Source: a virus. From it: a stretch of DNA of 64,000 nucleotides. Positions 1 to 45,390 of the stretch are shown here, in pieces. Each line of letters starts with the position of its first letter. Positions within the stretch are counted from its first letter, which is position 1. The stretch spans positions 32,304-96,303 of the IMG/VR virus record IMGVR_UViG_3300025012_000049; one strand, written 5' to 3'. Below the pieces are notes generated by a model. It ran no database searches. It was not told the origin of the DNA and was given only the letters and a program-made list of their open reading frames with translations. Made by a program: the position numbers and the translations under genes.

Positions 1-2190
1 TATGGAGAAGAATTATGGTGTAATTATGGTTATTACAGTAACGAGCTAATTTGTTGGTCAAGTTCTGGTTCTATTATTTATGATTTTACTAGAAATCCAA
101 CAGGTATTTCCTATAATATATTTAATGATTATGTAAAATACCAAGATAAGATTTATTTTACCTTTGCCTATAAGGGTGACACGGGGTATGAAAATCAGAA
201 GGGTTTAGGTATATTCGACCCTGCAACTGAGACTTCACGATTTGTTATTCCCAGCTATAAAACAGCAGATGATTATGGTTTTTATAAAATGACCCTTAAT
301 GAAGATTTAGGGGAAATATATATTGGTACAAATGTAGATGGTATTGTCATATTCAACATCATTACGGAGCAATTTACTCGTTTAAGTAATGAGGAAATTA
401 CAGGAATCACACCAAATAATACAGATAATTTTTATGGTAATGGTGGTGGTCCTGTATATGATTCAGCAAATGATCGTTTTTTCACTTGTTCTTATAATTA
501 TCGTGCAGTGGTTTCTTTTTTAAGAGAAGGAAAATTTAAACAGACACTATATAAACTTGGAACTAAAACAACTGGATGGGCTTTTTCTGCTGATGCACAA
601 TTAATCAATGGTTCTACAGCTCTTAATGCTTGGCTTAACATGGATGAAGGTAACAAAGTATGGTGTTTTTGGCAGAAAGATACCAATAATTTCACTGACC
701 ATTTTCTTGCTTGGGATGTTATTGAACCATTTTTTGATATAACCAATTATGTAGTAACCAGCAGAGATATTGAATTAAGAAGAACTGTTGATGGAAAACC
801 CAATGAGTTAAGTTTTGCTTTGTCTCATGGTCATTTATTTGATCCAAGTAACCAGTTATCTATTTTTTCCTCTTATGCTAGGAAAGGTCGTAAATTAACT
901 TTTGAAGCAGGAGAAATGATTGGTGGTGTAGCCTATTATCAAAATCAAGGTACATTTTTTATAATTGAAACAAGTATAGAATATTCGGTAAATGTTTATC
1001 CTGAAATAACTATACGGGCAGAAGATAAAAGATATTTGTGGAGTGAAGATAATCAAACAGCAATAGGATATGTTGAAGAAACACCAGAAAATATCTTGAA
1101 TGATTTTTTAACAGGTGAAATAATTGGTTTACTTACTGAAGAGGTAAGTATTCCAACAATGCAGGGAAGTATTTCTATTGATGCACAATGGGCTGAAGTA
1201 GATGCTGTAGAAATCATTAATACTATTGCTAAACGCTTTGGTTATTTCCCAAAAATAACTGTGGATGATATTTTTACTCTAGGTTTAATTTCAGATAGTG
1301 CAAGTGTAGTTCATACATACACAGATAAAAAAGCAATTATGAAATATACACCGGATGATAATTATTCATCGTTTATTAATCGTATAATTGTTACCGGAGA
1401 AGAAAAAGAAGAGATAGATGTACTTTTTGCAGAAGAAAGAGTAGCTACTTTAAATGGTACTGCTGGTTGGTGGGGTCATAAAAAGACTTATGATATTTAC
1501 TATTCAGATGATGGTAGTCGCAGGGTAAGGTATCCACGATTGGTAAAGTTGGAAACTACCTCAAGTATCATGTTTGAGTTGGCTGGTTCTGTTGATGAAT
1601 CCATTAATTATATAGACCCCAATGATAAATATTGTACTGTAAAGATTGATTGTCCAGATTTAATTCCATATTTTGCAGCAGCTTTAGGTATTATTGTTGG
1701 TAGTTATTGGATACCAGATCTTGATGTTAGTATTGGTCCAAACCCAACACTACCTATTGGTCGATACATTGGTGATGGTGGTATTTTCCTAGCTTTGAAT
1801 ATATTAGGTTCAATGGTTAATTATCAATATGAAATTTGGGGTGTTCCTGTAGGCAATATCCGTAGATCAGTACAATATACAGAAAATGATGAATTATTAC
1901 AGCAAGAAATTGGCAGAATAATAAGAGATATGATTGAAGGATTTGCTTGTTATACTGTAGCTGATTGCCGTTTTGTTGCTGAATTTGAAATGATGATACA
2001 AAAATTACAAAGAAAAAGGGTTACTTTTTCCAAGATAGCTCATCTACAGGATGAAGAGGGGGATACAATACAAGTACCACACCCTTATACAAATTTACCA
2101 ATTAAGTTGTTTATTAGCGATATAAAAAGAAAATGGAAATTTGGGGAAAACGGTTATTGTATTGATGATATAGAGGGTTGGAGAATTTAA
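1..2190 (+). CDS. Phage tail/baseplate hub-like protein (5' partial)
   Basis: Frame is open from base 1 into the 289..2190 ORF; beta-rich N-terminal part; C-terminal part resembles tail hub/host-specificity proteins; lies in a structural cluster. Confidence 0.6.
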   Translation, partial: YGEELWCNYGYYSNELICWSSSGSIIYDFTRNPTGISYNIFNDYVKYQDKIYFTFAYKGDTGYENQKGLGIFDPATETSRFVIPSYKTADDYGFYKMTLNEDLGEIYIGTNVDGIVIFNIITEQFTRLSNEEITGITPNNTDNFYGNGGGPVYDSANDRFFTCSYNYRAVVSFLREGKFKQTLYKLGTKTTGWAFSADAQLINGSTALNAWLNMDEGNKVWCFWQKDTNNFTDHFLAWDVIEPFFDITNYVVTSRDIELRRTVDGKPNELSFALSHGHLFDPSNQLSIFSSYARKGRKLTFEAGEMIGGVAYYQNQGTFFIIETSIEYSVNVYPEITIRAEDKRYLWSEDNQTAIGYVEETPENILNDFLTGEIIGLLTEEVSIPTMQGSISIDAQWAEVDAVEIINTIAKRFGYFPKITVDDIFTLGLISDSASVVHTYTDKKAIMKYTPDDNYSSFINRIIVTGEEKEEIDVLFAEERVATLNGTAGWWGHKKTYDIYYSDDGSRRVRYPRLVKLETTSSIMFELAGSVDESINYIDPNDKYCTVKIDCPDLIPYFAAALGIIVGSYWIPDLDVSIGPNPTLPIGRYIGDGGIFLALNILGSMVNYQYEIWGVPVGNIRRSVQYTENDELLQQEIGRIIRDMIEGFACYTVADCRFVAEFEMMIQKLQRKRVTFSKIAHLQDEEGDTIQVPHPYTNLPIKLFISDIKRKWKFGENGYCIDDIEGWRI

Positions 2191-2192
2191 TC

Positions 2193-3266
2193 ATGGGCTT
2201 ATTTAATAATAAGAGACTTATACGAAAAAATGCGTTATCTGTTTCCAAATCAAGACAAGAAACCAGAGATGCTATTATATGGGAGGTACTACCAACACAA
2301 CGTTTATGCAAAATAAAAATACAAGGATCAACTAATTTTCTTTATGCGAGATATCCACAAAATTGGGAATCAACCCCACAATACTTAAAAGCTGGTAATG
2401 CGGTAAGAATTGTGCATCGTGGAGGGAATAGAAATATTCTGGAAATAGTGGGGCATGGTAGAAATATACCCACATTTCCAGATTCAACAGACGTAATAGT
2501 TCCAATTGGTTCAAATAATGCAGTGTTAAGTGGTTTGGATATTTATGCTATAAGTGGTGTGATGAGGGTGGAGGTCTATAATGGAACATACAGAATAAAT
2601 GATGTAACTTACAGTGTTGGTGGTTTACTGCTTGGTAATGATTATAATACAATGGTTTTGGGTGATAATGTTATTTTAGGCGAATCTGTTGGGGTGTTTA
2701 CATTTACTGCACCATCGGCAGGTTATTGGCGCTATGATATGCTTGTAATTGGCGCTGATGGAACAATAGATAAAGTTGTTGGTACACAAACAATTAGTGA
2801 TCCAGCAATGCCAGCAACCCCAAGTAGCCATATAAAAATAGGTCATGTTTTGTTGTATGGTGGGATGACAGAAATAACTCAGGCTTATATTAATAAAATG
2901 TGGGAAGTATCTGTGCCTACATCAATGTTGGTTTCTCCGGTTTACTCAGAAATGGATTGGTTGGATAATCCGTTAAATATTACAGTTACAATCAAAGATC
3001 AAAATGGGATAAATCTTTCTGGTAATTGGAATATAAGTGTATCATTTGATGTTGGTAACGGATATTTTGATAATAATCCTGACTTTACAAATGGTATAAA
3101 AAGTACAGGGGGAACAGCTTCAGTAACATTTGCTTATTACAGATTAAATGATTTAATAGGTGAAACAGATGTTTCTCCACAAATAAGATTTAGTTTAAAT
3201 GGATATCCATTTAACATAGTTGTTGTAGTTATGTTATATGATTCTTTAGGCGAGTATATGTTATAG
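2193..3266 (+). CDS. Tail/baseplate structural protein
   Basis: GGAG RBS before ATG 2193; OB-like N-terminus, Ig-like C-terminus; tail context. Confidence 0.5.
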   Translation: MGLFNNKRLIRKNALSVSKSRQETRDAIIWEVLPTQRLCKIKIQGSTNFLYARYPQNWESTPQYLKAGNAVRIVHRGGNRNILEIVGHGRNIPTFPDSTDVIVPIGSNNAVLSGLDIYAISGVMRVEVYNGTYRINDVTYSVGGLLLGNDYNTMVLGDNVILGESVGVFTFTAPSAGYWRYDMLVIGADGTIDKVVGTQTISDPAMPATPSSHIKIGHVLLYGGMTEITQAYINKMWEVSVPTSMLVSPVYSEMDWLDNPLNITVTIKDQNGINLSGNWNISVSFDVGNGYFDNNPDFTNGIKSTGGTASVTFAYYRLNDLIGETDVSPQIRFSLNGYPFNIVVVVMLYDSLGEYML

Positions 3267-3280
3267 AAAGGAAAATTAAA

Positions 3281-3514
3281 ATGACAGATAGAGAACTGTT
3301 GGAGTTTATTTTGACAAAAGTTATAAATATTGAACAACAATTAACAGAAAGCAAAGCAGAACAAGAACGATACAAACAAAAATCCATAAGAATAAGGCAA
3401 CGAGCAAAATTGCAAATGGAGGCACAAATGAGCCATATGCCTCCAGCAATAAGACAAATAATGCAAGCAGCAATTCCTACAAATATAGATGATGAAGATG
3501 AAGGAGAAAACTAA
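3281..3514 (+). CDS. Hypothetical coiled-coil protein
   Basis: AAAGGA RBS; translationally coupled to next gene. Confidence 0.55.
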   Translation: MTDRELLEFILTKVINIEQQLTESKAEQERYKQKSIRIRQRAKLQMEAQMSHMPPAIRQIMQAAIPTNIDDEDEGEN

Positions 3515-4284
3515 TGTATAATTTTATTACTGCTTTGGTTGAGGGAACAACAAGATTTAATAAAGTGGATATGGAGGCACAAACCAAAGACTTAGATAAA
3601 GCTATTACTTATAAACATAATTTTCTTTTTCATTGTGATGGGGATATTACTTGGTCAAGCGGTACACTCACTTGGTCAGATAAAATGAGGATTATTTTCA
3701 TATCTGATGCCGGGAATGCTATTGCTAATGAAATCGCTGCTGGTAATATTGCTTTAGCGGATAACGAATATGCTTATGTTGATTTAAATGAAACCAACAA
3801 TAGTGTATTGACCGTTTCCAAAACCACCATTACTACCGGGGCCGCTGCTGGATATATTGGTGTTGGTCGAGTAGTATTAGGTTATCGAAATACCGCCAGT
3901 GATAATTTTTATCCAGTTGCTATTAAGAAAAAGTTTGAAACGGCTTTAACCGGGATTGGTTTGGAATTAACTGGTTATTCTGAAACAGAGGTTGGACCTG
4001 TTGATGCCTCTGGCGGAACGGCTAATATTGATTATGCAGCAGGAAATGTGCAGAGAGTCACTATTGGCGATGGTGTGGATGCAGCACTGACCTTTACCAA
4101 CTTACCTACAGGAAAAAGTTGTTCGGCAACACTACGATTAGAAATGGCAGGAGCAGTGCCAACAACCATTACATTACAAGGGACAACCATTGATACTACC
4201 GGAGTAACTGCCACGGGAGAAATTCTCGTAGAAGCTATTCGGATTAGTACGGATTGGTATATGGCGGTGCATCATGCCTCTTAG
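3514..4284 (+). CDS. Tail fibre/structural protein
   Basis: Thr/Gly/Ala-rich; IDYAAGNVQRVT-type fibre C-terminal domain. Confidence 0.55.
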   Translation: MYNFITALVEGTTRFNKVDMEAQTKDLDKAITYKHNFLFHCDGDITWSSGTLTWSDKMRIIFISDAGNAIANEIAAGNIALADNEYAYVDLNETNNSVLTVSKTTITTGAAAGYIGVGRVVLGYRNTASDNFYPVAIKKKFETALTGIGLELTGYSETEVGPVDASGGTANIDYAAGNVQRVTIGDGVDAALTFTNLPTGKSCSATLRLEMAGAVPTTITLQGTTIDTTGVTATGEILVEAIRISTDWYMAVHHAS

Positions 4285-16095: not shown

Positions 16096-16798
16096 TTGTC
16101 TCCTCTTCAGTCAAAAATCTAAATATCCAGCCTTTATATGTTTTTATTTTTCCAAGGATATAAGCACTTATTAAATTTTGTGATAGACCGTGCTTTTTAG
16201 CAAAATCAGTTTGATTATTGCTTATATATTTTACCCCTTCTGGTGAAGTAGCTTCAAACCATTTATTTTTTCTGGTATTTTTATTTTACTCACTCCGAGG
16301 AATCCAACAACAATTCTCTTTACAGTAGTTGCCGTTTATATCTTTTCTTTCAATAGTTATTGGATTGTTTTTTGATAATACATCTCTATATGTTTGTTTT
16401 ATAGCAATTAAATAAGACATATACATATCTTTTTTGAATTCCAAAAAATCTCCCCACCTTGGGTCATAGGTTATACCCCTTCCACCATAGTCATTGAAAG
16501 ATTTACAGTTTATATCATTGCATCTTTGTCTTATTCCTTTCCACAAAATATAAAATTTAGATTTTCCTGACCTTTTAGCGAACCCATGTTTTGTGTTTAC
16601 TTCTTTTATTCTTTCTATTGTATAACAACCACAACTTTTTGCTTTACCTGTTTTTAGGGTTGCTGCTGTTACCTTTACTTTGTTCCCACAATCACACTCA
16701 CATAACCATACATTTTGTCTATATTTATTTTTACCAATAATCATTTTAGCGGTTAACCTTGTAAATTTTTTATCAGTTAAGTCCAGAGGCATAGCCAT
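16076..16798 (-). pseudogene. HNH homing endonuclease with an internal TAA at 16286-16288
   Basis: Frame continues past the stop (IPRSE*NKNTRKNKWF...KGWIFRFLTEE) and aligns with the intact paralog 35001..35717, which has Gln at that position. Confidence 0.75.
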
Positions 16799-32209: not shown

Positions 32210-33163
32210 CTAAAAAGAAAATTTACGTCTGACTTTTTCCGTGGAAGCATCCAATTCTTTTTTAATCTCCCCCAATTGTTTATTAATGGTTTTAGTCAAT
32301 GCTTCATCATCTCTTAAATCTTTGGGAGTAACCCCTTTTACCACATTTTTTGCTTTGGTAATCAATGATTCCAATTCACTATCGTTAAATACGTTTTTAT
32401 TTTGGAACTCGTTGAAAAATTCCGTAACTTTATCAATAGAAGAAGCTCTTAGACGTTTTTCTTCACCATCTAATTTACCGGAAAGAGTATTAGTTAAATG
32501 AGTAACAATTTCTGCAAATCCTTCTCGCAAAGCTAATACCGCTTCCTTTTTAGCTTGTTGCATTAGGTCATTAAACCTTTTGGTTTCCTCTTCTCTAATT
32601 TCTTTGGTGATGCTGGATGGAACAGTCATTTCAAAGAAACGCCAATAGATACCAAACCGTTCTCTGATGTTTCTTGGATAATCAGCTTCATTGAATATTT
32701 CTTCATCCATATCAGCTTTAGCTTCACCAATAAATTCATCATATTGATTAGCAAACTCTTCAATTTTTACTTTCATTTCATCAAAGATACTAATTAAACC
32801 TGTATTTATTTTTTCAACAGTGCCTAGAGGAATAAAATAAATACCTTTAATTGGAAAGGGAAGAGCAACAGAGGTAATTAATTTTCTTGCTTCAGTAATA
32901 CAGAATTGAATATCTTCCAATTTTTTACGGTTGATAAGATTTTTATTGGCTTTCAACCAGCCATTTTCAAAATCTTTACCATATTTTTTAGCTTTATCTT
33001 TGGGGATTCTTTTAACTGCTTGCCAACAATGGGTTTCAAATTGAAGAAGGGTGCCTAGATTGAAAATATTGATTTCATTTGATTTACCAGTAGAAATTTT
33101 AGGTTTGCTTTTTTTATTTAATTTTAACCTGATTATTTTATTACTACTCTTACCCGTTTTCAT
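32210..33163 (-). CDS. DUF3150-like protein
   Basis: ALPF...GIYFIP...FANQYD...DYP...RF pattern; GGAGG RBS; own promoter; AAA-module context. Confidence 0.6.
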   Translation of the reverse strand: MKTGKSSNKIIRLKLNKKSKPKISTGKSNEINIFNLGTLLQFETHCWQAVKRIPKDKAKKYGKDFENGWLKANKNLINRKKLEDIQFCITEARKLITSVALPFPIKGIYFIPLGTVEKINTGLISIFDEMKVKIEEFANQYDEFIGEAKADMDEEIFNEADYPRNIRERFGIYWRFFEMTVPSSITKEIREEETKRFNDLMQQAKKEAVLALREGFAEIVTHLTNTLSGKLDGEEKRLRASSIDKVTEFFNEFQNKNVFNDSELESLITKAKNVVKGVTPKDLRDDEALTKTINKQLGEIKKELDASTEKVRRKFSF

Positions 33164-34771: not shown

Positions 34772-35026
34772 TTATGAGAATAATTCCTGATTAAAGAATT
34801 CAATTTCAGCATTGATAGCATCTTCCCTTTTAACAAATGCCATAGGAAGACAGCAACCAGTATAAATGCCGTGTAGAATTGTGACAACCCATTTTTGAAT
34901 ATTTGCATTAAACTCAACTTCACTAACACGTTTTATTTCTTTTTTGCCTTCAAACTCAGAAAGAAAATCTGAGTACAAAGAATGAATTGTTCCATCTGGT
35001 TTAATTATTAGGTTTATTTCTTTCAT
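34772..35026 (-). CDS. Hypothetical protein of the AAA/DUF2997 module
   Basis: IKPDGTIHSLYSD...IKRVSEVE...REDAINAEIE. Confidence 0.55.
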   Translation of the reverse strand: MKEINLIIKPDGTIHSLYSDFLSEFEGKKEIKRVSEVEFNANIQKWVVTILHGIYTGCCLPMAFVKREDAINAEIEFFNQELFS

Positions 35027-35717
35027 TTTTAAATTTCTCCAATATATCCTCTTCTGTTAGATATCTAAAAACCCAGCCTTTATGTTGTTTATATTTCCCC
35101 AATAAACAATTGTTCAAACTTTTTCTGTTTAGTTTGTGTTCTTTAGAAAAATCAGATTGGTTTTTACTTTTGTATTTTTTTCCATTTGGAGAAAATGCTA
35201 TAAACCATTTATTTCTCCTTGTATTTTTTCCCTGTAGATTTTTTGGTATAAAAACACAATTAACAAAAGTGTAGTTATTATTACTATCTTTTCTTTCAAG
35301 GGTCAGGTAGTTTTTTTCTGTTATTTCTTTTCTATATACCTTTTTGGCATGAATATACTTAAAATACATATCTTTTTTAAACTCTAAAAAATCATTCCAT
35401 CTAGGATCATGAATTATACCTCTACCACCATAAAAAGGATAATCAAGGGTGTTTTTATTATTACATCTTCTTCGCATGGAAGACCAGTATTTATAAAGAA
35501 TATGTTTTGTTTCCCCATGCTTTTTGCTTAAATTTCCTCTGATTTCGCGTGTAAGACAACCACATGATTTTGTATGTCCATTTAACAAAGCATAAATTCT
35601 TACTGAACTTATTTTATTATTGTCACAAACACATACGCAGAGAAAATTATATGTTTTTGTTTTGTCTTTTTTTATTACTGTTAATCTCCCAAATTTCTTC
35701 CCTATAATATCATTCAT
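35001..35717 (-). CDS. Free-standing HNH-type homing endonuclease
   Basis: GKKFGRLTV, KSCGC, YGGRGI and TLERKDSNNNYTFVNC motifs; C-terminal DNA-binding domain. Confidence 0.8.
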   Translation of the reverse strand: MNDIIGKKFGRLTVIKKDKTKTYNFLCVCVCDNNKISSVRIYALLNGHTKSCGCLTREIRGNLSKKHGETKHILYKYWSSMRRRCNNKNTLDYPFYGGRGIIHDPRWNDFLEFKKDMYFKYIHAKKVYRKEITEKNYLTLERKDSNNNYTFVNCVFIPKNLQGKNTRRNKWFIAFSPNGKKYKSKNQSDFSKEHKLNRKSLNNCLLGKYKQHKGWVFRYLTEEDILEKFKNERNKPNN

Positions 35718-39838: not shown

Positions 39839-40036
39839 TTATTTCTCCTTTCTGCCAGCGTAAAAACCAGCCATAAAGATATATTCCAATTGTTTGTTTT
39901 TATCCATGATGTTTAAATGATCTTTATTCATTTTAAAGAAATATTCTTTAGCTTTAAATCCTTGTTGATAATCATCCAATGTCAAATTTTCCTCTTTATA
40001 TTTTATTTTTAAATTATACCTTTTGAATTTATTCAT
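39839..40036 (-). CDS. Hypothetical protein
   Basis: ATGA overlap with the polymerase C-part. Confidence 0.5.
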   Translation of the reverse strand: MNKFKRYNLKIKYKEENLTLDDYQQGFKAKEYFFKMNKDHLNIMDKNKQLEYIFMAGFYAGRKEK

Positions 40037-42258
40037 ACATATTTAAACTCCCAATCTTTTAATTGATATGGTTTATCTTCTTTATCTTTTTTACCAGCTA
40101 ATATTTTAGCAATTAAACCAGTATCCATTCCCATTACCTCAGTAAAACCATGTAAGAATTTCTCTTTGAATACTTCTTCACTAGGTATATGTCTTGCTTC
40201 AAATAATTTATTTTCCAATTTTAAATCCAGCCAATTACTATCTGACAGCTCCCATTCTGCTTCCAACTTAACCTTTCCTAACCATTTAAACATGGGTTTG
40301 ATAGTCATACAACCTTCAACCAAATCCATGACTTGTTCAGCTTCATTTTTAAAGATATTGAAATAACCAGAGTCATGAATCTGACCAACAACTTTACTTC
40401 TCAAATCTAATTCTCGCATTTTGTTTTCTGTTTCAATCAAGGAATGTAGCAGCAAATGAAATGAGGTTGATTGTATTGGAAAATTAATAATCTCATTACG
40501 TTTCATTGGATAACGTCTTCTGAAGCCCAATGGATTTTCCACATAACCTAAATCATAATAACTATCAACAATCCATTTTTGCCATTCTTCCACACCACTA
40601 TAACGTTTATAAAAAACTTTTTGGCATTCAGTAATGTGTTGTTCTGAATAATCCTTAAAGAAATCACTCCAAGATTTATCAAATCCTTTTACCTGTTTGG
40701 CTTTTTGAAAAGCTTTCTTTACATATTCTACATAGAAATCAGATTTCCTGAATTCCTCTGCCATGGAAATTGAACTGGCACCAAACAAATTAGCAAAAGT
40801 AAAATTATTCTTGGCAAGAAATCTTTCATCCTTATGGGTTGCTTTTATTTCATCGACTGATTTGTTAATACCAAAAATAACTCCTGCCCAATGGGAATGT
40901 TGGTCATAACCATTATTTAAATCTTCAATTAATTGGTCGTCTTCTGATATAGCGGCAGCTACTTTAACTTCAGCACCAACATAATCGACCTCTCCAAGCA
41001 TCCCCTCTTGGAGATTTAATTGATAATTCCCACATTGATACTGTTTATAAAATTCAATTCTGGTAAAAATTTTTCTGATATTATGCCAAGGAACACCATT
41101 AATAATATCACCATGTTTTGGTATGGTGTTATGTACCACAATATTGTTTGCTACAAAAGAGTGTGAATCTTCAATTGTTAAATCAAAAGTCTCACACTCA
41201 CCGGCAGGAATAATACTTACAATTTCTTTTTCTTCAAACGCTTGTAAGTTGGCCGATACATTTTCATTAATGCTTCCCTCATTGATAAACCAATTGATAG
41301 ACGGTAATGAAATCTCCCTGTTGATATGCCATACTCTCTTGCCCAATCTGCCAATGATTGTGTTTTTCCTAAATAAGTTAAAAGTCTTTTTACTCTTCGA
41401 TTGTCTGCTTGCATTTTTGGGGTTGCCCAACAACAATTCTTTGGTGAATAATTGCCATTTACATTTATTCGTTCTATTGACCAACCCTTTTCTGGTTTTT
41501 CTCCCATATCTTTTAGAAAAAATCTGAATTTGTGCCATCTTGTGCAAACTTTTATTCCTCTTCCCCCGTATCGTGGATAATCTTTGCTTGTTTTGCTGTT
41601 GCATCTGTTTTTCATTGCTGCCCAACTGTAATAAGTTGGGCTTGTATAATTCTTTGTTCTGTGACCTAAACTCATAACAAATATCTCCTTTAAGTAATTG
41701 GTCTGTACGAACCCATCCACGTTTTGTTAGATATGGATGATTTTCCGTACTTGTTACCATATTACCACTTTCAGAAGATACGGCAAACACCTTTTTTATT
41801 CCATTACGATACACACCAATAATTTTTTTCCAAGAACCATCATGAGTAAGAACTTCAAATTGTTCATTATTTTCATATCTTTTTACAATTTCCTCAATTG
41901 CAATATTTCCTTTATTTGTTAATACTAATACACCCCCTTTAAGGCATTGGAAGAGAGTAGCAGAACTTCTATATGTACGAGTAGAATGCAACCAAAAATC
42001 AGTATGAAAGAAAATATCTGATTCATTAGCAATAAGTCTACGAAAACCTTTCACATAGGTATTCTTGGCTTTTTTCAATTTTCTTGCATTAATCAATAAT
42101 TTACAAAACTCAACATTTTCCTTTTCTGCGTAATGTAACAATACATCTTCTGCTACCGAATAATTACCCTTATCATTTTTCCCTTTAGTTGGTTTCAATT
42201 CAAGAAATTCAAAGAGAAATTGCTGCATTTGTACAGGGCTGGCAATATTGAAAATCAT
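40033..42258 (-). CDS. Family A DNA polymerase, C-terminal (polymerase) part, intein-containing
   Basis: FNIASPVQ, RSS..FQ/TIP, motif A EVDYVGAEVK, motif B RFLAKNNFTFANLFG, NFPIQST, motif C QIHDS. Confidence 0.9.
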   Translation of the reverse strand: MIFNIASPVQMQQFLFEFLELKPTKGKNDKGNYSVAEDVLLHYAEKENVEFCKLLINARKLKKAKNTYVKGFRRLIANESDIFFHTDFWLHSTRTYRSSATLFQCLKGGVLVLTNKGNIAIEEIVKRYENNEQFEVLTHDGSWKKIIGVYRNGIKKVFAVSSESGNMVTSTENHPYLTKRGWVRTDQLLKGDICYEFRSQNKELYKPNLLQLGSNEKQMQQQNKQRLSTIRGKRNKSLHKMAQIQIFSKRYGRKTRKGLVNRTNKCKWQLFTKELLLGNPKNASRQSKSKKTFNLFRKNTIIGRLGKRVWHINREISLPSINWFINEGSINENVSANLQAFEEKEIVSIIPAGECETFDLTIEDSHSFVANNIVVHNTIPKHGDIINGVPWHNIRKIFTRIEFYKQYQCGNYQLNLQEGMLGEVDYVGAEVKVAAAISEDDQLIEDLNNGYDQHSHWAGVIFGINKSVDEIKATHKDERFLAKNNFTFANLFGASSISMAEEFRKSDFYVEYVKKAFQKAKQVKGFDKSWSDFFKDYSEQHITECQKVFYKRYSGVEEWQKWIVDSYYDLGYVENPLGFRRRYPMKRNEIINFPIQSTSFHLLLHSLIETENKMRELDLRSKVVGQIHDSGYFNIFKNEAEQVMDLVEGCMTIKPMFKWLGKVKLEAEWELSDSNWLDLKLENKLFEARHIPSEEVFKEKFLHGFTEVMGMDTGLIAKILAGKKDKEDKPYQLKDWEFKYV
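41128..41946 (-). mobile_element. Intein (273 aa) in the DNA polymerase
   Basis: Starts CLKGGVLVLT; block B STENHPY; ends TFDLTIEDSHSFVANNIVVHN/T; exteins join as SSATLFQ-TIPKHG. Confidence 0.92.
41217..41675 (-). CDS. HNH homing endonuclease nested out of frame within the intein
   Basis: AAAGGAG RBS before ATG 41675; TYYSWAAMKNRC, YGGRGIKVC, SIERINVNGNYSPKNCCWAT; C-terminal HTH-like segment. Confidence 0.88.
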   Translation of the reverse strand: MSLGHRTKNYTSPTYYSWAAMKNRCNSKTSKDYPRYGGRGIKVCTRWHKFRFFLKDMGEKPEKGWSIERINVNGNYSPKNCCWATPKMQADNRRVKRLLTYLGKTQSLADWAREYGISTGRFHYRLSIGLSMREALMKMYRPTYKRLKKKKL

Positions 42259-42614
42259 GATGATACACCCAATCTTTTAACAATTTTATTTTCAAAAACA
42301 GTATATTTAAAACCAAATAATGTATCCTCTATTGAATAAGTCCAACACATGCCATCATACTCTGGTTCTTCCATTATTTCATAAATCAAATCAGAATTTG
42401 GCATGTTATGTATTTTAATAATATCTCCTTTTTTAAATTCAGGTTCCGTTTTTTTCCAGTTTTTATCTTCTTGAAAATGAATATTATCAATTAATCCATT
42501 TTTATTATCTCTACATTGACATGGTTCAAAAGTTATTTTAATTTCTTGTGTTTTATTTTCAACACTATATTTTAATTCTTGTAAGCAAAAAGGGCATTCA
42601 ACTATCAGTCTCAT
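42255..42614 (-). CDS. Hypothetical protein (zinc ribbon + SH3-like)
   Basis: CPFC...PCQC; FKKGDII; coupled to the polymerase C-part. Confidence 0.5.
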   Translation of the reverse strand: MRLIVECPFCLQELKYSVENKTQEIKITFEPCQCRDNKNGLIDNIHFQEDKNWKKTEPEFKKGDIIKIHNMPNSDLIYEIMEEPEYDGMCWTYSIEDTLFGFKYTVFENKIVKRLGVSS

Positions 42615-42615
42615 G

Positions 42616-43593
42616 TTATTTACTCCTTAAAGAAATACGTTTTGGTTTAGTTCTTTTCAATTTGTATCTTTTTGGTAATGTTGATGGAATTTCTAAATAA
42701 TCAAGAACTTTTTGTATTCCAAGATTCTCCATACAATATTTATGTAATTGTGGGTGTATTTTTCTCATTATATGAAATCTATTAATTTTTTCCATATGAA
42801 TGCCAAACATACAAAACATACAGCCAGTTCTTCCAATTCCTTTTTTATAAATATCTGCATAAGGTAAATTATTTGTATGGATGTATTTCCAAATGTCTTT
42901 TTCTGTAAAAATAGACAATGGTTTACTTTGTGGTTTGTTTAGTGTGAAACTATTGCATCCATATTCTTTCCATTGACCCAAACGAACACCACTATCATCG
43001 GTCATTGTCCCTATATATGGTTTTCTATTTGTTTGTTTTTCATATATATATATAGGTTTCTTTTTTATCCAGTCACAACAGTATTCACTTATTTTAAATG
43101 GTGCTATTAATAGTTTATGCCACTTATCAGACAACTTAGCTCTCTGTTTATATACACCTTTATTCCATCCAGTTAAATGATATTTGCTAATATTTGAATT
43201 GGGATTGTGTCTTATTTTCCTTATTCTTAAAGAAACTTCTTTACTTATTACTGGATAACCATATTCTTCAATTACTTGTTTGAAATTCTTTTTAGGTTTA
43301 ACCCACATAACATTATCAAATGTTTTAACAAACTCTCTGATTTCAGGCCATTCAAGACCAGTATCAGAAAATACAGCAGGAACATCTGGATAAATTTGTC
43401 TAACCAAATGCAATAAAACTGTTGAATCTTTTCCACCAGAAAAAGAAACATATACATTTCCATTCCAATATTCATACCACTCTTTGATTTTCTCTTGTGC
43501 ATAAAGTACCTTTGTTTCTAATGATAAAGATTGTAAAAGTTTTAAATCTTGGTATGTTCTTTTTTGTTTTCTTTTTAGTTTGTGTTTTATCAT
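42616..43593 (-). CDS. PAPS-reductase-family (PP-loop, Fe-S) protein
   Basis: SFSGGKDS, DTGLE, CC and RTGCMFC motifs. Confidence 0.85.
   Translation of the reverse strand: MIKHKLKRKQKRTYQDLKLLQSLSLETKVLYAQEKIKEWYEYWNGNVYVSFSGGKDSTVLLHLVRQIYPDVPAVFSDTGLEWPEIREFVKTFDNVMWVKPKKNFKQVIEEYGYPVISKEVSLRIRKIRHNPNSNISKYHLTGWNKGVYKQRAKLSDKWHKLLIAPFKISEYCCDWIKKKPIYIYEKQTNRKPYIGTMTDDSGVRLGQWKEYGCNSFTLNKPQSKPLSIFTEKDIWKYIHTNNLPYADIYKKGIGRTGCMFCMFGIHMEKINRFHIMRKIHPQLHKYCMENLGIQKVLDYLEIPSTLPKRYKLKRTKPKRISLRSK
42623..42648. repeat. 26-bp direct repeat, copy 2 (copy 1 at 43775..43800)
   Basis: CTCCTTAAAGAAATACGTTTTGGTTT identical at both sites. Confidence 0.85.
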
Positions 43594-43766
43594 ACAATTA
43601 TATCTTCTACTCTTAAAATATCACAAGTATCAAAGGTTAAATTGTACCCTTTAATTGTTCTTACATATAAATTATCTTCATTTCCATCCAACAGCAACTC
43701 ACAAATAAACTCATCATTATTATTCATGATTACTTTAAATTTTAATTGTTCCATAAGTTTTTCCAT
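43590..43766 (-). CDS. Small hypothetical protein (58 aa, not in ORF track)
   Basis: AAGGAG RBS; MEKLMEQLKFKVIM...; ATGA overlap with the PAPS-like gene. Confidence 0.55.
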   Translation of the reverse strand: MEKLMEQLKFKVIMNNNDEFICELLLDGNEDNLYVRTIKGYNLTFDTCDILRVEDIIV

Positions 43767-43767
43767 C

Positions 43768-45390
43768 TTATCTTCTCCTTAAAGAAATACGTTTTGGTTT
43801 TTCAAAACATAAAGATTGTAAATCTTTTTCCTCTTTCTTCTTTTTAGTCTTTCCTGTTTTGTTCTCAAGGTATTTGTTAAACTCAATAACTTCAGGCATT
43901 GATTCAATTTCTGCTTCAATTCGTTCTATTTCTTTATCCAGAAACTTTTCAAATTCATTCAATTCCTGTTCACCAATATTGATTCCCCTTTGGGTCATAT
44001 CAGCAAACAACATATGACCATCATATAAGAATTCATAATTTTCCTTGGCTTTGGGATATATATCAAATAAGTCTTTTCGAAACAATAAAAAATTATTAAA
44101 TGTAGTGATAACGTCTAAAGCATTGTATTGAATCATATCTTCTTTTGGTGCTTCTCGAATCTTATTTACTTTTTCAAAGGTATAGTTACCAACATCATCA
44201 TTATCTTCCTCTTCTGAATCATTATCTTCTTTATCAATGGATTTTTTACTGGTTTCCAAATATTTCTTAATAGTCTCATTATATGGTGGAATTCCAAACC
44301 TTACCAAGTTCTGAAAATCCAAGGAAGTACAACCTTCCCGCTCATCAATAACATGGGTTGCCAACATGGTACAAAACATATTTTCAATTCTTTTAATTTT
44401 AAAAATAAACCGACTGGCTAAATCTTCAAATTTACTATTTTGAATAACTTTACAAATATTTTTATTGGTTAGTAATTTCTGCATTTGCAAATGAAACCAT
44501 ATTTCTATTTTCTTATCCTTCTTCCAAAAATCCTCATGGAATACCCATGCACTTTGCTTATTAGCAAAGGCAATATAGATTATTTCAAAGTAATGGTCAT
44601 AAGGAAACAGATTAGTGGTTTCATAGTCTAAAGCAATCTCTTTACATTGGTTCCATAAATTAAATAATTGCTTGGCTTCTTTTACTGTTTTAACTTCGGT
44701 AATAGTTATACCTTCAAGTATTTTCCGTTCCTGCAATATTTTTTTGACTTCGGTACGTTTGTAGGCAATTTTATTCCAAAACTTAAAAATTCTTTCCAAG
44801 TCACGTTTGTAAGTATGTTGATAATAATAATTCAATTCATCAATACCGTTTTTCTTACTATACATTTCCCGATTGTAAGGATCATAAACTGGAAATACCA
44901 AACAATTATATTCATAATTAGGTATAATTCTATTTCTAAGTTTGGAAATGGCATATTTATTTTTCAGGTTGAATAAATATTTAAATGCCATTTCACCACA
45001 ACAAATAATCAATTTAGGTTTTAACTCTTTAAGACGTGCATCCAAAATACTTTGACAGCATTTAAAATGTGTATCCGAGGTTTTCTTTTTGGAAGGATTA
45101 TAGCAAGAGACAGCATGAAGCATTGCCGATTGTTTGGCTAGATTGATACCAAATTTAATAGCAATACTTCTGAGAATTTTAGATCGTGAATCAGCAAATG
45201 GTTTGCCTTTTTCATCATCTTCTTTGGATACCTTTTGGCCCAATATAATTAATCCATCATATTGTGGTCCTTGATATATTTCCAATACTGGATTATCAAT
45301 CTTATTATTTTTCAAACCACATTTATTACAATCAAATTTTGAATTGTTAGTTTTTTTATTTAATGATGGTATTGGAAAATAAAAAGACAT
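43768..45390 (-). CDS. Family A DNA polymerase, N-terminal part: UDG-like domain + 3'-5' exonuclease
   Basis: CNKC...GKPF...SC...C family 4 UDG-like pattern; Exo I LDYETT, Exo II QNSKFE, Exo III YNALD; MTQRGI. Confidence 0.85.
   Translation of the reverse strand: MSFYFPIPSLNKKTNNSKFDCNKCGLKNNKIDNPVLEIYQGPQYDGLIILGQKVSKEDDEKGKPFADSRSKILRSIAIKFGINLAKQSAMLHAVSCYNPSKKKTSDTHFKCCQSILDARLKELKPKLIICCGEMAFKYLFNLKNKYAISKLRNRIIPNYEYNCLVFPVYDPYNREMYSKKNGIDELNYYYQHTYKRDLERIFKFWNKIAYKRTEVKKILQERKILEGITITEVKTVKEAKQLFNLWNQCKEIALDYETTNLFPYDHYFEIIYIAFANKQSAWVFHEDFWKKDKKIEIWFHLQMQKLLTNKNICKVIQNSKFEDLASRFIFKIKRIENMFCTMLATHVIDEREGCTSLDFQNLVRFGIPPYNETIKKYLETSKKSIDKEDNDSEEEDNDDVGNYTFEKVNKIREAPKEDMIQYNALDVITTFNNFLLFRKDLFDIYPKAKENYEFLYDGHMLFADMTQRGINIGEQELNEFEKFLDKEIERIEAEIESMPEVIEFNKYLENKTGKTKKKKEEKDLQSLCFEKPKRISLRRR

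Follow-up and report, generated by a model that had tools for sequence, protein, structure and literature searches.

Inteins whose homing endonuclease is encoded outside the intein's own reading frame have been described before. Gosselin, Arsenault and Gogarten (bioRxiv 10.1101/2025.01.02.630785) reported 'non-canonical' inteins of actinobacteriophages, with the homing endonuclease in a separate frame or antisense, and proposed that they originate when a free-standing gene invades an intein. Phillips, DeSimone and Gogarten (bioRxiv 10.64898/2026.09.14.751524) described a cyanobacterial dnaX intein with a LAGLIDADG endonuclease in a +2 open reading frame (ORF), and Gorbalenya 1998 is credited there with the first proposal. 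Two neighbouring arrangements are the fractured genes of Dassa et al. 2009 (PMC2677866), in which a free-standing endonuclease gene lies between the halves of a split intein, and the ShiLan insertion in a phage methylase (Arsenault et al. 2025, PMC11855218), which conceals an HNH in another frame. Here we examine a 64,000-nucleotide stretch of viral DNA (the window; positions 32,304 to 96,303 of IMG/VR record IMGVR_UViG_3300025012_000049) in which a DNA polymerase gene is interrupted by an intein, and the intein in turn is overlapped by a small HNH-like gene in the +1 frame. The source record is a 96.3-kb virus genome estimated to be 98% complete, and the window DNA is present in groundwater-metagenome runs. 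We think it likely that this is a mobile intein with a homing-endonuclease-type gene overprinted on its linker, its internal initiation, nuclease activity, target site and splicing competence all being predicted from sequence and structural models. The features on which this reading depends are as follows.

40033 to 42258, minus strand: gene for the C-terminal (fingers/palm) part of a family A DNA polymerase, 741 amino acids (aa) including the intein, matching Pfam DNA_pol_A with E 2e-39
41128 to 41946, minus strand: class 1 intein of 273 aa, with Cys1, a TENH block B and an HN/Thr+1 junction
41659 to 41946, minus strand: N-terminal splicing domain, intein residues 1-96, AlphaFold2 (AF2) predicted local distance difference test (pLDDT) 91-96, wobble at intein codon position 3
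41272 to 41658, minus strand: in-frame linker, intein residues 97-225, 129 stop-free codons, AF2 pLDDT 30-46
41128 to 41271, minus strand: C-terminal splicing domain, intein residues 226-273, AF2 pLDDT 88-96, with a TIGR01443 match
41217 to 41675, minus strand: nested HNH-like gene, 152 aa, frame +1 with respect to the intein, from ATG (41673-41675) to TAA (41217-41219)
41685 to 41691, minus strand: Shine-Dalgarno (SD) sequence AAAGGAG, nine nucleotides upstream of the nested ATG; in the intein frame these bases read Lys-Gly-Asp
41673 to 41675, minus strand: the nested ATG, straddling the intein codons TAT and GAG (Tyr-Glu)

This locus has much in common with the actinophage inteins: in both, an endonuclease gene of the same strand but a different frame occupies the space between the splicing blocks, the in-frame middle lacks recognisable structure, the nested gene is kin to free-standing phage genes, and gene callers miss it. 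In actinophages, however, the out-of-frame nuclease is endonuclease VII-like and in 'frame 3', with HNH found in frame only, whereas the window has an HNH-like/helix-turn-helix (HTH) protein of phrog_3377 at +1; the actinophage hosts are cultured and the invaded polymerase that is named is the DNA polymerase III alpha subunit, whereas ours is a family A polymerase of uncultured phages. The dnaX intein also shows a disordered in-frame middle, a confidently folded alternative-frame protein with an SD motif upstream, low omega in the nested frame with high omega in the host frame, and mini-intein and empty alleles that co-exist; it differs in its LAGLIDADG endonuclease, its +2 frame and its cellular, cyanobacterial rather than phage, gene. 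Like the window, the ShiLan insertion is a stop-free in-frame insert with an HNH endonuclease in an alternative frame, but it has no splicing domains and is thus no intein, begins with GTG without a detectable ribosome-binding site, and has a recognisable HNH. The fractured arrangement is found in one relative (locus L039, below) and not in the window, where the host frame is unbroken; the endonucleases of Dassa et al. are Vsr-like or GIY-YIG, unlike the HNH-like family here. Out-of-frame intein endonucleases are therefore already published for other nuclease families, and what is new here is the nuclease family, the host gene and an explicit codon rule. An earlier note on this DNA, made by a model from the letters alone, had pointed to similar architectures in phage inteins, and the two bioRxiv preprints (2025, 2026) prove it right. 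In our literature search, neither this nuclease family nor an intein of a family A polymerase turned up with such a layout, and a search for the YGGRGI motif by which that note named the family returned unrelated venom-peptide papers only.

The intein itself is well defined. The coordinates proposed in the earlier note all hold, and curated intein models exceed their cut-offs: Pfam Intein_splicing PF14890 (E 1.8e-12, 47.8 bits versus a cut-off of 35.8), TIGR01445 (37.5 bits, cut-off 24.5) and TIGR01443 (23.5 bits, cut-off 15.6), with the full 741-aa ORF also matching the Pfam intein splicing domain (E 5e-11). The Cys1 codon lies at 41944-41946, the terminal Asn at 41128-41130 and Thr+1 at 41125-41127, such that the intein ends in ...VVHN and Thr follows; Cys1, T67-E-N-H70, H272-N273 and Thr+1 are invariant in the intein alignment. 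In the AF2 model the linker is almost without secondary structure, with a single 3-residue helix, and it has no family match in Pfam or phrog profile searches. The polymerase frame continues unbroken through the intein, unlike in fractured genes, so that the intein is contiguous and of the cis-splicing kind. Its splicing competence is predicted from the intact blocks and the confident model of both halves.

Insertion into the polymerase is precise, as subtracting 273 from 741 leaves 468 aa, which falls within the 461-470 aa of the nearest polymerase relatives (up to 87% identity), all intein-less. The insertion motif in polymerases is R-S-S-x-x-(P-N)-L-Q followed, after the insertion point, by N/T-I-P-K-H; the window version, RSSATLFQ then TIPKH, aligns exactly, over the insertion point, with the intein-less polymerases P0005 to P0010. 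Of these, P0007 to P0010 carry the same unusual junction, ...ATL-(F/I)Q then TIPKH, with Thr where polymerases normally have Asn, and P0005 has Val at that position, whereas more distant relatives have the canonical ...P-N-x-Q-N... at the site. The odd junction of P0005 and P0007 to P0010, ...ATL-(F/I)Q then (T/V)IPKH, is two residues shorter than the canonical motif. Judging from these sequences, the junction of the intein-less relatives may be the scar of a precise intein loss, or a co-converted target allele. The intein-less junction, ...CTCTTCCAA/ACCATACCA..., is the putative homing target.

The second gene lies within the intein, one base out of step with it. The 152-aa ORF and its own AAAGGAG had been pointed out in the earlier note, and its coordinates are as given there; an alternative GTG start at 41720 would extend the protein to 167 aa. 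Hidden Markov model searches separate the two frames, returning intein models in the polymerase frame and phrog_3377, annotated 'HNH endonuclease', in the +1 frame (profile positions 6-149 of 196, E 4.9e-47). The nested protein has tblastn relatives in 958 phage records and 1132 protein-database relatives at E<=1e-10, whereas blastn gave only short matches, to free-standing relatives of the gene. It is missing from a 5.8-billion-protein catalogue, where the best match has 68% identity, while the polymerase is present there (P0004), which we read as gene callers having skipped the nested gene.

The same two-frame layout recurs elsewhere. An alignment query of IMG/VR gave 456 matches, 80 of which were fetched; scans of IMG/VR with a single protein as query, either polymerase or intein, gave no match, and tblastn of the intein against cultured phages returned unrelated inteins only. 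Some 25 distant polymerases have inteins alignable with that of the window over its full length, at 35-48% identity, and most of these alignments have no gap over 273 aa. Among the fetched loci, nine distinct further ones have the layout (L006, L007, the mutually identical L008/9/11, L010, L012, L014, L033, L048 and L055), in addition to a partial one, L027; together with the window, these nine polymerase loci of uncultured phages make up the ten loci referred to below. The loci come from different metagenomes, and in every one the nested frame is +1 relative to the intein; 256-283 nucleotides separate the intein start from the nested ATG, with four of the ten loci at exactly 271. No stop interrupts the intein frame in any of them, whereas the third frame has 7-32 stops. 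Identity to the window is 37-72% in the nested frame versus 35-47% for the whole intein, and in every locus the nested frame is at least as similar as the intein. An ATG stands at the equivalent position in nine of the ten loci, most with GGAG or GGGGA 7-9 nucleotides upstream; GG(A/G)GAT precedes the ATG in most, its purine run doubling as the conserved Gly-Asp codons of the intein. As far as sequence can tell, the SD motif and the matching ATG fit separate translation of the nested gene.

This recurrence also bears on whether the reading frames are what they seem. Two compensating assembly or sequencing frameshifts could in principle hide an intein with an in-frame HNH, or programmed ribosomal frameshifting could fuse the nuclease to the intein. 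We found no point in favour of either and regard both as extremely improbable. Contigs from three Logan runs show zero inserted or missing letters, including a contig spanning 41053-42300, the whole intein, without indels in a run whose sample was not flagged as a source (X4); a run in which the virus has a small share (X5) covers the region in fragments only. As the contigs are free of indels and the frame relation is conserved in independent metagenomes (ten distinct loci), compensating frameshifts, which the earlier note had named as what would overturn its proposal, are excluded. With regard to ribosomal frameshifting, the nested ORF comes with an SD and an ATG of its own, an in-frame fusion would need two frameshift events, and avoiding stops in the intein frame, as shown below, would be pointless were that frame never read.

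The window also holds two free-standing relatives of the nested gene, and a third lies elsewhere in the same genome, outside the window.

35001 to 35717, minus strand: free-standing paralog, 238 aa, E 5.7e-12 to the nested protein, 35 stops when read in the frame that corresponds to the intein's
16286 to 16798, minus strand: free-standing paralog, 170 aa, E 7.8e-8, 19 stops in the equivalent frame, ending early within the conserved core

These E values bear out the kinship that the earlier note had drawn between the nested gene and the genes at 16 and 35 kb under the YGGRGI name. The 16-kb paralog has a TAA inside the conserved core (...CCWIPRSE, then stop), with homology running on past it, and on that ground may be a broken copy.

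To what extent the open intein frame could be due to chance was assessed by holding the nested protein fixed and resampling its codons synonymously from extein usage, in 2000 draws. For the window, these redraws had on average 18.3 stops in the intein frame, and not one of the 2000 was stop-free, which puts the open intein frame far outside what chance would give; across loci, eight of the ten gave no stop-free draw among 2000 (8-18 stops expected there). The third frame over the window's nested ORF, in comparison, carries stops in the expected number (15 observed versus 9.8 simulated), with 32 across the whole intein. The rule behind this is simple. In the +1 geometry, an intein-frame stop arises only if a nested codon ends in T and the next one starts with AA, AG or GA. 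At such risky positions, the nested gene uses a codon ending in T in 0 of 51 cases, versus 19 of 64 and 35 of 104 in the 16-kb and 35-kb paralogs, which accounts for their 19 and 35 equivalent-frame stops; at safe positions, 35% of the nested gene's codons end in T. Because each risky T has a synonymous C, the +1 layout is cheap to maintain.

Patterns of divergence indicate which of the two frames is under selection. Nucleotide identity at intein codon positions 1, 2 and 3 is.63,.71 and.33 in the N-terminal splicing domain and.77,.84 and.35 in the C-terminal one, but.42,.69 and.75 in the overlap, meaning that the wobble position moves there to the nested frame. The ratio of nonsynonymous to synonymous change (pN/pS) in the overlap is 0.33 in the nested frame versus 1.42 in the intein frame, the frame-specific comparison that the earlier note had proposed; in the splicing domains, read in the intein frame, it is 0.41 (N-terminal) and 0.23 (C-terminal). 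As a control, the N-terminal splicing domain read deliberately in the +1 frame gives 1.28, and the overlap value of 1.42 is similar to this off-frame read. It is the nested protein that selection maintains, whereas in the intein frame nothing but openness is preserved, via synonymous choice. The proposal of the earlier note that this DNA codes in two frames is thus supported by the conservation of both frames in nine more loci, the wobble shift, the synonymous avoidance of stops, and a nested frame that is folded where the linker is unfolded.

These values also speak to the idea that the nested ORF is a decaying, unexpressed relic of a past invasion, with the intein persisting by splicing alone. 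Degenerate relatives do exist, such as L031, which retains an HTH remnant, and the short P0062 and P0056. A relic would nevertheless be expected to gather stops and frameshifts, whereas this ORF is intact in the window and nine further loci, starts at a matching position in nine of the ten, and shows a pN/pS of 0.33 at identities of 37-72%; we consider this explanation very unlikely.

What the nested protein does is a harder question. Its AF2 model, built from a 40-sequence alignment, has a mean pLDDT of 90.6 and features a core of two strands (66-69 and 81-84) and a helix (86-91) with a helical C-terminal domain, giving an HNH-like domain at about residues 10-96 and an HTH-like DNA-binding domain at about 97-140. 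The disordered intein linker is covered almost exactly by the folded part of this protein. Structural matches over residues 97-152 are to HTH domains, including the DNA-binding domain of I-TevI, and the closest named protein clusters bear NUMOD1, NUMOD3 or I-HmuI NUMOD-like modules, which are typical of homing endonucleases. The core of the nested family (alignment A2) reads S-I-(E/D)-R-I-(D/N)...G-N-Y...N-C-x-W...Q..N, in which R69, Y76, N80 and Q89 are invariant and the acidic residue 68 (D/E) and N92 are conserved.

A series of results weighs against our reading of an expressed homing nuclease. The nested protein has no match at E<=1 to any Pfam or NCBIfam family, HNH models included; an hhalign comparison of the nested family with the canonical in-frame HNH_3 domain of a relative, L029, gave a probability of 0.1, that is, nothing; and a PDB sequence search yielded chance matches only, with no solved relative. 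Foldseek gave no match at E<=0.001, its top match being the HNH homing endonuclease I-HmuI at E 0.25, and an exhaustive structural search ranked the HNH restriction enzyme PacI first over model residues 1-96, though weakly (Z 6.6, a value that is common; root-mean-square deviation 3.1; 82 residues aligned). An invariant Arg (S-I-E-R-I-N) stands at the presumed place of the catalytic His, as read by eye from alignment A2. At the level of initiation, no conserved RNA structure masking the nested start was found (RNAalifold, zero pairs; single-sequence fold z -0.88), and no dedicated promoter either, with no scan aimed at one, as consensus matches would say little in this AT-rich DNA.

Such results would be expected if the protein were made but were not a nuclease, in which case a His-less HNH-like and HTH protein would act as a sequence-specific DNA binder, such as a regulator or a partner that targets a different nuclease, and the intein would have lost the ability to home on its own. 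The Arg aligned with the catalytic His, the missing Pfam HNH match, the negative hhalign result and the weak fold matches all favour this possibility. Nonetheless, the family behaves as mobile, free-standing endonuclease genes do, being spread over many phage records, present in several copies per genome and associated with NUMOD modules; the nested gene sits exactly at the place of an intein endonuclease; and conservation in the beta-beta-alpha core extends to the acidic residue, Asn80, Gln89 and Asn92. On balance, we judge a non-nuclease role to be unlikely. PacI, the best fold match, is itself an HNH enzyme in which the canonical His is missing, with a Tyr probably used instead. The nested protein belongs, by profile match, to phrog_3377. 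The 'complete HNH' of the earlier note needs tempering, given the lack of a Pfam or NCBIfam HNH match, the Arg in place of His and the weak match to the PacI fold. 'HNH-like' is the safer name, and nuclease activity is uncertain.

If the overprinted gene does encode a homing endonuclease, the system would probably work in the following way. Ribosomes in the polymerase frame would traverse the whole 273-codon intein, the Hint halves (residues 1-96 and 226-273) would fold around a 129-residue disordered loop, and the polymerase would be spliced at ...ATLFQ-TIPKH.... Other ribosomes would initiate inside the intein at AAAGGAG-N9-ATG, one base out of step, to make the separate 152-aa HNH-like and HTH protein. 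This protein would most likely recognise, and cut or nick, intein-less polymerase alleles of co-infecting relatives, and repair would copy the intein together with its nested gene into the cut allele, that is, homing. The distribution of the intein is sporadic, with intein-less alleles in the closest relatives.

The same polymerase site hosts several other forms. In L039 (995-4168), the polymerase's N-terminal portion with the N-intein half (995..2794), an HNH-like gene (2775..3239) and the C-intein half with the polymerase's C-terminal portion (3041..4168) are separate; the polymerase frame is broken, and this is a fractured split-intein form with the same endonuclease family as the window. 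Its C-terminal intein block ends in MN rather than HN. L031 (1643-2242) has a 200-aa intein whose +1 frame has kept nothing of the nested gene but its HTH end; judging from its sequence, it probably arose from the overprinted form by deletion and is derived rather than ancestral. The short inteins of P0062 and P0056 still contain, in the intein frame, the first part of the overlap. The earlier note had proposed that a free-standing gene invaded a mini-intein. Such an origin is a plausible candidate; the sole short form with readable DNA, L031, looks derived, and P0062 and P0056 keep part of the overlap. L029 (2456-3373), finally, carries at the same insertion site, between the same splicing blocks, a canonical in-frame HNH_3 (E 1.3e-6) of the HNH_3/NUMOD4 type; unlike the nested protein, this nuclease is part of the intein polypeptide, and the two have no sequence kinship. 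Two unrelated endonuclease types hence share one insertion point.

We also noted a second, different intein match in the polymerase locus of L012, L055, L060, L050, L077 and L083, lying upstream of the shared site in L012 and L055. In L034/L035, L042 and L050, the intein match at the N-terminal end falls in a different frame from that at the C-terminal end, and these sequences may be further fractured or frameshifted forms. In the window, the family A polymerase is split, with its front part on a 540-aa gene (43768..45390, minus strand) and three ORFs between the two parts (43590..43766, 42616..43593, which encodes 325 aa, and 42255..42614, all on the minus strand).

A more ambitious interpretation, which we consider improbable at present, holds that the YGGRGI proteins form a new class of beta-beta-alpha homing endonucleases that lack the His and rely, like PacI, on Arg or Tyr chemistry, that overprinting is a regulated design in which internal initiation under the traffic of polymerase-frame ribosomes ties a low endonuclease dose to polymerase expression, and that the lineage shuttles between contiguous, fractured and mini forms. 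If true, it would make this site a living series of intein endonuclease gain and loss.

Our findings extend the class of inteins with out-of-frame endonucleases by a third nuclease family and by a host gene new to it, a phage family A DNA polymerase, and the codon rule explains how easily the +1 offset can be kept up. The nested protein family is widespread in phages, yet unnamed by Pfam. Because the nested gene is absent from a protein catalogue that contains its polymerase, inteins of this kind have probably been mis-scored as decaying or mini-inteins. The empty, contiguous overprinted, fractured, deletion-derivative and in-frame HNH forms at one polymerase site provide a natural series for the model of 'splicing first, endonuclease later'.

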